Shown piece by piece: positions 18,703 through 22,938 of a stretch of DNA of 64,000 nucleotides (position 1 is the stretch's first letter; each line of letters opens with the position of its first letter). Origin of the DNA: Escherichia phage ECBP1; the sequence record NC_018854.1. One strand, written 5' to 3'. Position numbers and translations under genes: made by a program. The notes beneath the pieces are model-generated. The model ran no database searches, was not told the DNA's origin, and saw nothing but the letters and a program-made list of their open reading frames with translations.

Positions 18703-20751
18703 ATGAAAATCGAACTGATTTCTATCATCGCACTGGCAGTTGACAGTCGTAACCTTACATTGTGGAAGCCCGATGGCTCCACGATTGTATATCCTCAGAG
18801 CGACCCACGGGTTGCTCGCATTGTATCTGAAGCTCAAACTAAAGGTCTGGGAACTACCAAAGACCAAATAGAAGTAAACATCGCACCAGAAGTAAACCTG
18901 CGTACTGAATATCTGGAAGCAGAGAAGAACACTAACGGATTCGTCCGTTTCTTCAAGGTAGCTAAAGCTAAACTCAAAGAGTTCTTTCAGGATGGTACAG
19001 GTGTTCCACCTGACCGTATTATTTCTGATATTAAGCTGGGTAATCCTACTAAGACACTGGTGTCTAAAGCTATGGATACCTTTCTGGCTGTACAGGCCAA
19101 TGAACCAGAAGTAACTGTAACAGATGGTTGTTATGACAAACGTGACAATCTGATGTGGGTTACTGGCTGGGACAAAGACCATAACCATCCTGCACTGGTT
19201 CGTTTTATTAACGACGTAATGGGTTGTGGGTATGAATATACTAACACCATGCTCAAACAGGAATGGCCTGTTGCAGTTCGTGCAGTATCTGATGATGAAA
19301 TGGGTGAGTTTGCTAAACAAGCCGAACACATCAAAGGGGTTCATGTTGTATTCACCAGTCGTAAACATACCCCACCACCTTACATTGAAGTAACTAAAGT
19401 TACGAACCAGGATAAGCTGGCTGCTGCCTCGGAGAAACTAGCTGCATTGGGTGCTATTAGTACTGATGACGCTAACTTCCACACCGATGTGAAGGAAGAT
19501 GAAGTGGTTGTTGCTGTTACCAACAATGGGGTTATCCCCGGAGTTGAGAACCTGCAACGTCACTTACGTCAGTCTGCCAAGCTGAAAGACTACAAGGGCT
19601 TTACTAAGTTCCTTGAACGTCTGGCTCCGGTTATTAAAGACCGTCTGCACTCAGTAGAAGACCTGATGAAGTTCATGGAAACTGCTGAACTGCCTATTGC
19701 CGATGATGGTTCAATCCTGTTCCTCAAACGCCTTAAGTCTAGTGGTATAGAAAACGGTAAACGTGTATTCGTTGACTGTCACTCGGGTAACATTCGTCAA
19801 TGGGTAGGCTGTAAAGTGCAGGTACGCGAAGACCTGGTAGACCCTGACCGTCGTCAGGATTGCTCTAACGGTCTGCACGTAGCATCCATGAGCTATCTAC
19901 GTGGCTTCGGTGGTAATGTGACCATCCTTGGTAAAGTAGCACCGGAAGATGTATTTGCTGTTCCTCAGTACAGCACCAATAAAATGCGTGTATCTGCATA
20001 TCATATTATTGCTGAACTACCGGAAGAGGAACGTAATAATGTTAATAATGGTATCTACCTGTCTAAGACAGAAGTAGGTAAGAAATTGCTTAATGATGCC
20101 ATCGTTGGGAACCATAGCTCACCTACCACACTTATTATGGTTGGGGGTCATTATGGTACTAACCTCAAATACACTAATCTCACATCTGGTTCTGTAGAAC
20201 AATTCCGTACAGTTGCTAGCAAAGAAGCACTGAACATGGAAGAGTCACTGAATGAAGCTGTAGCTGCTGAACCAGTGAAGGCTACTGACCTTAAACCTGT
20301 TATTAAGAAGGCTCCTACTGTGAAAGAACAAATCCAGGAACTGGTCAAAGAGTTCCTTACTGCAACAACCCCAGAAGATAAGTTAGCTGCTGCTGACCTT
20401 CTGGTAGAACTGCGTGGTAAAGCTCGTAAGCCTTGGGCTGCATTCGATGTGGGTAATGATGTAGTAGCTAAGATTGCTGATGTACGTGCTACCTATACAG
20501 CTAAGCCTATTGGTAAACCTAAAGCTGTTAAGCAGGATAAGACAGTTAAACCTACTAAATCTAAGCCTGCTATTAATAGTACTAATGCCAACATCATCAG
20601 AGGTTATCTAGCAGATAGTGGTATGTCTGATTATCAGAAAGCCCACTCCATTCATGACCTGAAACGTGCAGCTAAGAAGTCTTATGCTGCTATGGGTCTT
20701 ACTGAAGAAGAGTGCAAAGCCATTGATAAGCTGAAGCACCACCTTAAGTAA
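18703..20751 (+). CDS. rIIB-like protein (assignment by position only)
   Basis: 682 aa directly downstream of the rIIA-like gene; K/A-rich C-terminal tail. Confidence 0.4.
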   Translation: MKIELISIIALAVDSRNLTLWKPDGSTIVYPQSDPRVARIVSEAQTKGLGTTKDQIEVNIAPEVNLRTEYLEAEKNTNGFVRFFKVAKAKLKEFFQDGTGVPPDRIISDIKLGNPTKTLVSKAMDTFLAVQANEPEVTVTDGCYDKRDNLMWVTGWDKDHNHPALVRFINDVMGCGYEYTNTMLKQEWPVAVRAVSDDEMGEFAKQAEHIKGVHVVFTSRKHTPPPYIEVTKVTNQDKLAAASEKLAALGAISTDDANFHTDVKEDEVVVAVTNNGVIPGVENLQRHLRQSAKLKDYKGFTKFLERLAPVIKDRLHSVEDLMKFMETAELPIADDGSILFLKRLKSSGIENGKRVFVDCHSGNIRQWVGCKVQVREDLVDPDRRQDCSNGLHVASMSYLRGFGGNVTILGKVAPEDVFAVPQYSTNKMRVSAYHIIAELPEEERNNVNNGIYLSKTEVGKKLLNDAIVGNHSSPTTLIMVGGHYGTNLKYTNLTSGSVEQFRTVASKEALNMEESLNEAVAAEPVKATDLKPVIKKAPTVKEQIQELVKEFLTATTPEDKLAAADLLVELRGKARKPWAAFDVGNDVVAKIADVRATYTAKPIGKPKAVKQDKTVKPTKSKPAINSTNANIIRGYLADSGMSDYQKAHSIHDLKRAAKKSYAAMGLTEEECKAIDKLKHHLK

Positions 20752-20763
20752 TAGCCTGTTCAA

Positions 20764-20794
20764 ATAGCCTCACTTATAATAAAGTGAGGCTATC
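20764..20794. promoter_or_regulatory. perfect 31-bp palindrome centred on TATAAT
   Basis: atagcctcactttat-a-ataaagtgaggctat read directly; sits between the rIIB-like stop and the HTH gene. Confidence 0.4.
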
Positions 20795-20813
20795 TTTGAA
20801 GAGGAAATAAGCT

Positions 20814-21209
20814 ATGTCTAAAGTATTCAGAAGTAATCGCAAAGCAACTGATGAAGACATCATTCGTATGAATGCTGTTGGTCTGTCCCTCGCAACTATC
20901 GCTAAGACGTTGGGGGTTCACCCAACCACAGTCACTTTGCGATTGCGTTCTCTAAACATTGAACCAGCCGACACACGTCGGACGTTCATGGAAAACGTAT
21001 TACGACCTTTACCAACCCATGTGGCTGATTGGCTGTCAGAACAAGTTGGTCCTGCTTATGAGATTCGCTCATATGTAAGAGACTTGATTCTGGAGGCATA
21101 TAATAATCGCCACCTTAACCAAGAGAGTGAGCATGACAAGTTCATCCGTTTGTACGCTGGCAAATACGGAAGCCTGGTTCCGGAAAGCAGTAGCAAATCC
21201 AACAAGTAA
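20814..21209 (+). CDS. helix-turn-helix DNA-binding protein
   Basis: LSLATIAKTLGVHPTTVTLRLRSL resembles an HTH. Confidence 0.45.
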   Translation: MSKVFRSNRKATDEDIIRMNAVGLSLATIAKTLGVHPTTVTLRLRSLNIEPADTRRTFMENVLRPLPTHVADWLSEQVGPAYEIRSYVRDLILEAYNNRHLNQESEHDKFIRLYAGKYGSLVPESSSKSNK

Positions 21210-21594
21210 GAATATTAGTACCCAGATTGGTTGTCATCTGGAAGAAGTATGTGAAATGTTAGATGAGTTGACCCCATCCTGTGAGGATAGTATGCAAGTA
21301 TTAGCCGATGCACAGGCTGCTTTGAGTAAATTATCTCTGCTGATGAAAACAAATCACATGGCTATTTTCCCAGCGAATAGCAATCGCTTAGCTTTGCTGG
21401 ATTCACTGGCAGACCAGATTGTTACAGCAACTGGAGTCGGTACTTTTCTTGGGATGAATGTCCCTGGAGCATTGGCTGAAGTCAATCGCTCAAACTATTC
21501 TAAGTTTGAAGATGGAGAACCTGTCTTCAATGGGAACATGAAAGTTATGAAAGGGAAAGACTACACTCCCCCGGATTTAACCCCTTACATCTAA
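21127..21594 (+). CDS. hypothetical protein, possibly MazG-like; start uncertain
   Basis: LEEVCEMLDEL resembles the MazG EExGE motif; track start overlaps the upstream gene by 83 nt. Confidence 0.3.
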   Translation: MSMTSSSVCTLANTEAWFRKAVANPTSKNISTQIGCHLEEVCEMLDELTPSCEDSMQVLADAQAALSKLSLLMKTNHMAIFPANSNRLALLDSLADQIVTATGVGTFLGMNVPGALAEVNRSNYSKFEDGEPVFNGNMKVMKGKDYTPPDLTPYI

Positions 21595-21627: not shown

Positions 21628-22938
21628 ATGTTTTCCAAACCTACCAAAGCCCCACTGAACAAGGGGCAAGAAGCGGTTGCGAAGGAGTTCTTCGACTTCC
21701 TGCTCGACCCTAATGCTACCGAATTCAATATTAGTGGCCCAGGGGGAACTGGCAAGACATTCCTGATGTCGCACCTCATTGATGACACTATGCCTGCATA
21801 TATGGAAACTTGCTCCCTTATGGGAACCAAGCCCCTATATAACGAAGTTGTTATGACTGCGACCACGAACAAGGCTGCTGAAGTTCTGGCTCAAGCTACT
21901 GGGCGTCCAACATCTACCTATCATTCCTTCCAGGGATTGATTGTTAAGAATGACTTTAAGACTGGTGAGGCTAATGTCGTACCGTCCAAATCATTCAATA
22001 TTAAGAAGAACAAAATCATCTTCGTAGACGAAGCATCCATGATTGACCGTCAGTTACTTAAGTATGCTCGTGAAGGTACTCACCAGTGCAAACTGGTATT
22101 TGTAGGCGATGCTTCTCAGCTTCTGCCTGTTAAAGAGAATAAGTCTCCAGTGTATGCAGGTAATATCCCAACACACTATCTGACTGAACAGATGCGTACC
22201 GATGCACCGGAACTTAAAGCATTGCACCAGCAATTGCGTGATACGGTAGAAGGTAAGACAGGCTTCCTGCCTATTAAATGTATTCCAGGCATCATTGATT
22301 GGGTACAGGGGGAAGAGATGGAGAAACTGGTTCTCAGTCACTTCACTCAACCTACTAATAGCCGTATTGTTGCTTACACAAATGACCAGGTTATTAATTA
22401 CAATAACTACATTCGTGAAGCTAATGGCTACGTGGGTGAGTACTCCATTGGTGAACAGCTAGTCTCTAACTCTGCTATTCGCTTAGGTGTGGATAATCGT
22501 CTGTCTATCGAGCAAGACGTAAAACTCATTGACCAGGATAGCAGTACTCGCATGATTCCAGTTACAGATGACCTGGAACTGGAAGTTCGTGATAGTACTC
22601 TGGACCTTGGTTATGGTGGTATTGTAAGTGAAGTCCCAGTACCTACCGACCCAGAATACTTCAACCGTTTGGTTAAGTGGCTAGGTAAAGAGAAGAACTG
22701 GGAACCCTACTTCCGTCTTAAAGAAACCATTCCAGACCTACGTGCTACTCATGCATGTACTGTCCATAAATCACAAGGCTCTACTTACGACACAATCTTC
22801 ATTGATGCAGATGACCTCTCAAGCTGTCGCCAACCTGATATGGTTGCCCGTCTGCTTTACGTCGCTGTGTCTCGTGCCCGTAAGCGAGTAGTGTTTTATG
22901 GCAATCTTGCCAGTAAGTATGGTGGTCTAACTTTCTAA
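21628..22938 (+). CDS. SF1 DNA helicase (Dda/RecD-like)
   Basis: Walker A GPGGTGKT; Walker B-like IIFVDEASM. Confidence 0.7.
   Translation: MFSKPTKAPLNKGQEAVAKEFFDFLLDPNATEFNISGPGGTGKTFLMSHLIDDTMPAYMETCSLMGTKPLYNEVVMTATTNKAAEVLAQATGRPTSTYHSFQGLIVKNDFKTGEANVVPSKSFNIKKNKIIFVDEASMIDRQLLKYAREGTHQCKLVFVGDASQLLPVKENKSPVYAGNIPTHYLTEQMRTDAPELKALHQQLRDTVEGKTGFLPIKCIPGIIDWVQGEEMEKLVLSHFTQPTNSRIVAYTNDQVINYNNYIREANGYVGEYSIGEQLVSNSAIRLGVDNRLSIEQDVKLIDQDSSTRMIPVTDDLELEVRDSTLDLGYGGIVSEVPVPTDPEYFNRLVKWLGKEKNWEPYFRLKETIPDLRATHACTVHKSQGSTYDTIFIDADDLSSCRQPDMVARLLYVAVSRARKRVVFYGNLASKYGGLTF

Follow-up and report, generated by a model that had tools for sequence, protein, structure and literature searches.

The region described here comprises positions 20,814 to 21,594 of a 64,000-nucleotide (nt) window, the whole stretch of Escherichia phage ECBP1 DNA that was analyzed (NC_018854.1). 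It contains two genes on the same strand that share part of their sequence in different reading frames. Going by the annotation of related records, the two are homologues of gp35 and gp36 of phage N4. The upstream gene codes for a putative helix-turn-helix (HTH) protein and the downstream gene for a predicted nucleoside triphosphate (NTP) pyrophosphohydrolase. Very probably, two separate proteins are made, the second from an independent start at ATG 21133, and the genes overlap by 77 nt. The features on which this reading depends are listed below in window coordinates (aa, amino acids; SD, Shine-Dalgarno).

20814..21209, + strand: gp35-like gene, 131 aa; matches phrog_6377 (E-value, E, 5e-74), with sub-threshold HTH matches
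21121..21131, + strand: SD-like purine-rich tract AGAGAGTGAGC, inside the gp35 coding sequence and upstream of ATG 21133
21127..21129, + strand: GTG, the start implied by a preliminary description of this DNA; probably unused, not conserved and with a weaker SD
21133..21594, + strand: gp36-like gene, 153 aa plus stop; predicted member of the all-alpha NTP pyrophosphohydrolase family; phrog_671
21133..21209, + strand: dual-coding segment, 77 nt; gp35 residues 107-131 (frame 0), and gp36 residues 1-25 plus two bases of codon 26 (frame +1)
21241..21255, + strand: EExxE codons (E37-E38-V39-C40-E41), with E37, E38 and E41 invariant in the family
21256..21258, + strand: internal Met42 codon, a conserved residue of EEVxEM and the start of a 112-aa product in several records

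The HTH open reading frame (ORF) begins with ATG and is closed by TAA at 21207-21209. The downstream ORF, in the +1 frame, runs open from 21088 and terminates at 21592-21594. Its earliest canonical start is GTG 21127, from which the overlap measures 83 nt; an in-frame ATG 6 nt 3' of this codon, at 21133, gives an overlap of 77 nt and a protein of 153 aa with the N-terminal stretch MTSSSVCTLANTEAWFR. No in-frame ATG, GTG or TTG occurs in 21136-21255. The next canonical start is ATG 21256, immediately after the EEVCE codons, and a product started there would begin MLDELTP. The preliminary description had stated that the downstream frame overlaps the HTH gene and that an ATG which would truncate the EEVCE motif is the sole conventional start after the HTH stop; this geometry was confirmed, the ATG concerned being ATG 21256. 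By our own estimate, the chance of an alternative frame being open over 41 sense codons is about 0.14. Since an open frame of this kind is not improbable by chance, the reality of the overlap rests on conservation and not on ORF geometry.

The long form of the downstream protein was used as a tblastn query and matched 305 phage records. Distant phages (hosts: Achromobacter, Vibrio, Rhizobium, Stenotrophomonas, Pseudomonas, Agrobacterium and Sinorhizobium) align from query residue 2-16 onward when residues are counted from GTG, with 37-55% identity; matches from the first five host groups start at residues 1-11 of the query. A protein alignment from seven genomes gave the conserved N-terminus TLxxTxxWFxKAxPNPTxKNxSTQIGCHxEEVxEM. 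An exhaustive HMMER search of 1.84 billion cluster representatives returned 1284 relatives, of which the best 150 (50%-cluster representatives) were analyzed. The alignment starts from query residue 1-14 in 149 of these, the sole exception being the 112-aa short-annotated form of the closest cluster, and the motif Q.G...EE..E is present in 143. Among 96 diverse stand-alone representatives (39-52% identical to the query), residues E37, E38, E41, D90 and D94 are invariant, and W15, F16, Q31, G33 and H35 are conserved in at least 90%. The Trp of helix 1 has a median position of 13 in stand-alone homologues and is at position 15 in the window protein. These alignments bore out the earlier proposal that residues required by the downstream protein are encoded within the HTH gene; the homologues in them, as a family, neither start at the downstream ATG nor lack the EExxE region.

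Of the best 150 representatives, 54 are 175-317 aa long. Their N-terminal extensions are diverse and bear no relation to gp35; they may be genuine fusions, or genes from metagenomic contigs that were called too long.

The same comparisons bear on a reading without any overlap, in which translation starts at ATG 21256 to give 112 aa and the open frame upstream is fortuitous. This start is used in several records, its ATG is invariant and a GGAAGAAG tract lies upstream. Met42 is, however, also invariant in phages without the upstream overlap, where it is clearly internal, and gene callers are drawn to it because the residue itself is invariant. The 41 codons upstream of Met42 are conserved across phage families and encode both the invariant E37/E38/E41 and the nearly invariant W15/F16. 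Cutting the protein at Met42 lowered its PHROG score from 107.7 to 80.8 bits. In an AlphaFold2 (AF2) model, the first two helices span residues 5-19 and 25-43, and the 112-aa form would lose both of these, out of five. A start at ATG 21256 without overlap is very unlikely on these grounds.

Start codons were compared in 13 Enquatrovirinae loci from four genera (the window, Bp4, nithesis, UE-S5a, PBM-2, G7C, PhAPEC5, phi G17, Moo19, N4, AlfredRasser, VLCpiP4a and BaqKoxi). An ATG is found exactly 77 nt before the gp35 stop in all 13. The GTG at -83 is absent from five, being replaced by GCG in phi G17, by CTG in N4 and AlfredRasser, and by CAG in VLCpiP4a and BaqKoxi. The calculated duplex with the anti-SD sequence is -4.5 kcal/mol for ATG 21133, -2.9 kcal/mol for GTG 21127 and -3.3 kcal/mol for ATG 21256. 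In N4 and the Klebsiella phages, AAGGA or AAAGG lies about 8 nt 5' of the same ATG. The start of gp36 is annotated at this ATG in N4 (EF056009, 20462), G7C, PhAPEC5, AlfredRasser and nithesis. A start at GTG 21127 (83-nt overlap, 155 aa) has in its favor that this is the earliest canonical start in the open frame and that it is found in most Gamaleyavirus loci and in Moo19; it is nevertheless improbable, as it is not conserved whereas all loci have the ATG 6 nt downstream, it has the weaker SD pairing, and no record annotates it. The true start of the gp36-like gene is, judged from these sequence comparisons, almost certainly ATG 21133 and not GTG 21127. The overlap length of 83 nt given in the preliminary description is right when counted from the GTG, and is replaced by 77 nt when the conserved start is used. 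We infer that ATG 21133 would be used in vivo, with initiation led by the SD-like tract.

Between the HTH stop and the motif, the downstream frame has three non-canonical codons (ATT 21214, ATT 21226 and CTG 21238), and a start at any of them would keep EEVCE without an overlap. They lack an SD-like sequence (-1.4 to -2.2 kcal/mol), a canonical ATG that is conserved lies further upstream, and the product would be without helix 1, including the nearly invariant W15/F16 and the conserved PNPT. Initiation at one of these codons is hardly credible.

Selection in the shared segment was analyzed with eleven Enquatrovirinae sequences, whose alignment between the gp35 start and Met42 contains no indels. 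In the part coding for gp35 only, the variable columns numbered 31, 17 and 89 (of 106 each) at gp35 codon positions 1, 2 and 3; in the overlap they numbered 17, 10 and 10 (of 24 each). The wobble-like maximum thus moves, within the overlap, to gp35 position 1, which is gp36 position 3. Variable columns at gp35 position 3 fell from 89/106 outside to 10/24 inside the overlap (p = 5e-5), and those at gp35 position 1 rose from 31/106 to 17/24 (p = 3e-4). Mean pairwise amino acid identity was 0.88 for the gp35 core and 0.56 for the gp35 tail, 0.74 for gp36 residues 1-25 and 0.92 for gp36 residues 26-42. The pattern of codon positions and identities argues that the gp36 frame is the dominant constraint in the shared segment. 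This signature tracks the gp36 frame upstream of 21256, a further point against a start at that ATG, and by this measure the gp36 frame is under purifying selection inside the gp35 gene. Some residues of the gp35 tail are common within the Enquatrovirinae (H..F...Y.G). The window and Bp4 have Ala21 (GCA) in gp36 at position 21193, where nearly all close relatives have Pro (CCA); this single substitution alters both proteins, with Thr to Ser in the gp35 tail.

Several observations weigh against a start at ATG 21133 or weaken the evidence for it. Within the overlap alone, the difference between positions 1 and 3 is weak (p = 0.08), and the frame-switch statistic owes its strength to the comparison with columns outside the overlap. 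As the sequences are related, the counts do not represent independent events, and with so short an overlap the contrasts are descriptive and do not amount to a phylogenetic test. The SD-like tract of ATG 21133 is modest (-4.5 kcal/mol, compared with about -6 kcal/mol for neighboring genes). Residues 1-20 of the AF2 model are of low confidence (predicted local distance difference test score, pLDDT, 47-56). Met42 may be used additionally, as a minor internal start. Searches of the literature found no published function for N4 gp35 or gp36, and no functional, proteomic or ribosome-profiling data for the pair.

A programmed +1 (or -2) ribosomal frameshift that fuses the HTH protein to the pyrophosphohydrolase domain was also considered, since both frames lie on one strand and overlap, the downstream one being open from 21088. 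In the segment 21088-21209, neither an X XXY YYZ heptamer nor a homopolymer run of at least 4 is present. The fold of 21085-21185 was not better than that of shuffled sequences (z -0.86) and had no Rfam match, and on the same two results an RNA-structure coupling at the gp36 start was rejected. The gp35-like N-terminal domain was found in none of the 150 family representatives; gp35 and gp36 are separate in the phages Kpn16-P2 and OLIVR2, and Vibrio and Rhizobium phages have gp36 but no gp35. The probability of a frameshift product is negligible. The preliminary description had offered three mechanisms, and the long translational overlap is the one that stood; the frameshift fusion failed for want of a slippery site and of any fused homologue, and the non-canonical start for the loss of W15/F16 and the lack of an SD.

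The gp35-like protein gave sub-threshold Pfam matches to HTH_38 (E 2.8e-4) and HTH_23 (E 6.5e-4) at residues 16-44, and a DNA-binding HTH domain in its N-terminal part (about residues 16-47) is plausible; phrog_6377, which it matches, has no known function. The conserved core of gp35 covers residues 1 to about 100 and ends just before the gp36 start, and the tail (residues 107-131) is variable and lineage-dependent, differing in length or being absent in other lineages. The arrangement of the two genes in the phages compared was as follows.

Pseudomonas phage Holyagarpour: gp35 of 105 aa, canonical 4-nt gp35/gp36 overlap
Stenotrophomonas phage C121: 56-nt gp35/gp36 overlap
Enquatrovirinae: 77-nt gp35/gp36 overlap
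Achromobacter phage Axy12: 185-nt gp35/gp36 overlap, with gp35 unannotated in the record
Achromobacter phage JWAlpha: 209-nt gp35/gp36 overlap, annotated
Agrobacterium phage OLIVR2: gp35 and gp36 separated by another small gene
Vibrio and Rhizobium phages: gp35 absent, gp36 stand-alone with its full N-terminus

The gp35 homologue of Axy12 (MK962631.1, extracted-locus 473-976) is 167 aa long and 61% identical over 125 residues; the record annotates in its place a 48-aa ORF on the reverse strand.

In Klebsiella phage vB_Kpn16-P2 (PP848842.1), an unannotated ORF of 170 aa with an HNH_3 domain (E 7e-18) is inserted after gp36 codon 8. This ORF (extracted-locus 275-787) begins at the ancestral overlapping gp36 ATG and retains the residues MSDSSNDT. 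Beyond the insertion point, the original gp35 tail has been replaced. The gp36 gene resumes 443 nt later at a new ATG (777), with a complete conserved N-terminus and an 11-nt overlap with the HNH_3 ORF. That a homing endonuclease relies on this ATG speaks for a functional initiation site there, and the replacement of the gp35 tail argues that the tail is dispensable.

The simplest reading of these sequences is that the variable tail would be a tolerated run-on of the gp35 frame into gp36 until a stop is met. Long same-strand overlaps of other phages, which arise by overprinting or stop loss, likewise combine an old constrained frame (here the gp36 N-terminus) with a young variable extension (here the gp35 tail); the present case differs in that only a C-terminal tail arose, with no new protein, and any regulatory role is hypothetical. 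A broader proposal is put forward tentatively and we consider it rather doubtful: the gp35 tail would be a recent, lineage-variable overprinting on the ancient gp36 N-terminus, and the position of the gp36 ribosome-binding site within gp35 would make synthesis of the pyrophosphohydrolase coupled to, or limited by, translation of the HTH protein, as a small regulatory device conserved across the Enquatrovirinae and a hotspot for hijacking by homing endonucleases, as in Kpn16-P2.

The gp36-like protein matched phrog_671 ('nucleotide pyrophosphohydrolase') with E 1.2e-30 over residues 8-153, and two 'MazG-like' PHROGs weakly; N4 gp36 is 65% identical over 100% of the query. Scanned directly against Pfam and NCBIfam, the window protein gave no relevant match, and a lone match to Trns_repr_metal (E 0.088) was rejected as noise. 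Pfam MazG (PF03819) was not matched by the window protein or by any of the 96 relatives at E <= 0.01. Sub-threshold matches to PRA-PH were obtained in 7 of the 96 (best E 5.7e-4), and four more distant phage proteins found by tblastn pass the Pfam PRA-PH threshold (30-56 bits, cutoff 21.3). Alignment with these four by hhalign gave 99.7% probability and E 1e-26 over residues 84-153, covering LLDSLADQIVTATG...EVNRSNYSKF.DG.PVF...K..KG.DYTPPDL; the link to PRA-PH is transitive and concerns the C-terminal half only. A permissive extended alignment, of low confidence, superposes both EExxE motifs.

When a 7-sequence profile was searched against solved structures, only DR2231 was found (best E 0.0025; all seven DR2231 entries at E 0.0025-0.01, over helices 3-5); the broader 96-sequence profile was weaker (E 0.19). 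Residues D90 and D94, which form a second acidic motif (ExxD-like) on a later helix, align with the D..D of the PRA-PH-positive phage proteins and with LADLL of DR2231, and the acidic EExxE motif, of the metal-binding type, lies in the predicted helix 25-43. The AF2 model is all-helical; fold searches with it against solved structures were uninformative, and a BFVD fold search returned weak matches to phage 'MazG' models. The protein can be placed on this sequence evidence, as a distant member, in the all-alpha NTP pyrophosphohydrolase superfamily, nearest to the PRA-PH-type and DR2231-like members, and by the same searches is not a MazG in the strict sense. The label 'MazG-like' of the preliminary description thus holds at the level of the superfamily, and has to be given up for the Pfam family.

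For the protein itself, two known groups serve as points of comparison. The PRA-PH-type (PF01503) phage enzymes (for example Bordetella phage CN2 gp53, cyanophage NATL1A-7 CYIG_00020 and Gordonia phage Neville gp55) share a homologous C-terminal half and have an EExxE helix upstream; the window protein differs from them in reaching no Pfam model, and the helix 1 signature WFxxAxPxPT is particular to the gp36 family. Among solved structures the sequence profile found only the MazG-like all-alpha NTP pyrophosphohydrolase DR2231 of Deinococcus radiodurans (PDB 2yeu, 5hwu and others). In cyanophage NATL1A-7 (NC_016658.1, extracted-locus 221-339) the PRA-PH-type gene is annotated with a 119-nt overlap into an upstream 'nucleotide kinase', a further long overlap at the 5' end of a gene of this superfamily if its start is taken as annotated.

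The explanation that best fits the data is one mRNA read in two frames to give two separate proteins. Ribosomes would start the gp35-like HTH protein at ATG 20814 and would initiate independently on the gp36-like NTP pyrophosphohydrolase at ATG 21133, in the +1 frame, after the SD-like tract. The shared 77 nt would encode helix 1 of the pyrophosphohydrolase (TLxxTxxWFxKAxPNPT) in the more strongly constrained frame, and the poorly conserved C-terminal tail of gp35 in the other. By homology, the 153-aa product would hydrolyze (deoxy)NTPs, (d)NTPs, to the corresponding monophosphates, (d)NMP, and pyrophosphate (PPi) in the replication and nucleotide-metabolism module; we infer both its activity and its substrate from the family. 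A house-cleaning or a dUTP/dCTP-hydrolyzing role beside the replication genes is plausible.

The segment 20600-21800 matched 77 phage records, all of them N4-like podoviruses (Schitoviridae, Enquatrovirinae, mostly Gamaleyavirus), and is 98.5% identical to Escherichia phage Bp4. By this comparison the window phage is a Gamaleyavirus (Schitoviridae; G7C/Bp4-like). The local gene order is an rIIB-like gene (18703..20751), the HTH ORF (20814..21209), the downstream ORF (in the frame of 21127..21594) and a RecD/Dda-like helicase (21628..22938). The records of relatives show that the position of the gp36-like gene, between the rIIB/gp35 genes and the RecD/Dda-like helicase, is kept in the Schitoviridae replication module. 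A 2014 paper reported that an NTP pyrophosphohydrolase gene adjoins the helicase in Achromobacter N4-like phages. In N4 itself (EF056009: 20143..20538 and 20462..20914) both genes are orthologous (76% identity for gp35), with the same order of rIIB, gp35, gp36 and helicase gp37, the same ATG position and the same 77-nt overlap; the difference is one of sequence divergence only, the window phage being a Gamaleyavirus and N4 an Enquatrovirus. Minus-strand ORFs in the region (31-49 aa) were without support and were rejected.

The gp35/gp36 pair is flanked by two hairpins.

20764..20793, + strand: hairpin between the rIIB-like stop (20751) and the gp35 start, with a 12-bp perfect stem and a 6-nt loop
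21593..21618, + strand: terminator-like hairpin followed by T6, beginning in the gp36 stop codon and upstream of the helicase ATG 21628

The first has a folding free energy (dG) of -20 kcal/mol (z -7.9), and none of 200 shuffled sequences was as stable. A weak T-tract (CTTTG, 20794-20798) is directly 3' of it, and a terminator scan made no call for this hairpin because the T-run is weak. A stem_loop is annotated at the equivalent site in the G7C record, and the hairpin is likely a terminator or attenuator, or an RNA-stability element. The second hairpin has a 7-bp stem (dG -11.4 kcal/mol, z -2.5), and terminators are annotated at the same place in the PhAPEC5 and JWAlpha records.

The 77-nt overlap is already known, having been annotated in the N4 reference since its deposition, and also in G7C and PhAPEC5. 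Other records differ. Among Gamaleyavirus and Moovirus records, the 112-aa form, from the internal ATG, is annotated in Bp4, UE-S5a, Moo19, phi G17 and PBM-2, and ECBP1_0042 is a 112-aa record 100% identical to the window protein. Judged by the conservation described above, the 112-aa annotations of Bp4, ECBP1 and Moo19 are mis-calls that truncate the gene. The VLCpiP4a record uses a GTG start (extracted-locus 758; 20-nt overlap, 134 aa), and the same GTG start with a 20-nt overlap is given in the published KP8 table (PMC6950046). This Kaypoctavirus-type variant (VLCpiP4a, KP8), which removes helix 1 including W15/F16, is probably also a mis-call.

The main value of these results is for annotation: they document inconsistent database starts, make the case that the 112-aa calls are truncated, and describe how the overlap varies across the Schitoviridae. 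As the 112-aa product is without the invariant EExxE and two helices, its expression would probably yield an inactive fragment. The two frames can be separated by the base change T21134C, which leaves the gp35 residue unchanged (CAT to CAC, His) and removes the gp36 start codon (ATG to ACG). Without opening a new biological question, the locus illustrates neatly, on a small scale, how unequally the two frames of a dual-coding segment can be constrained.

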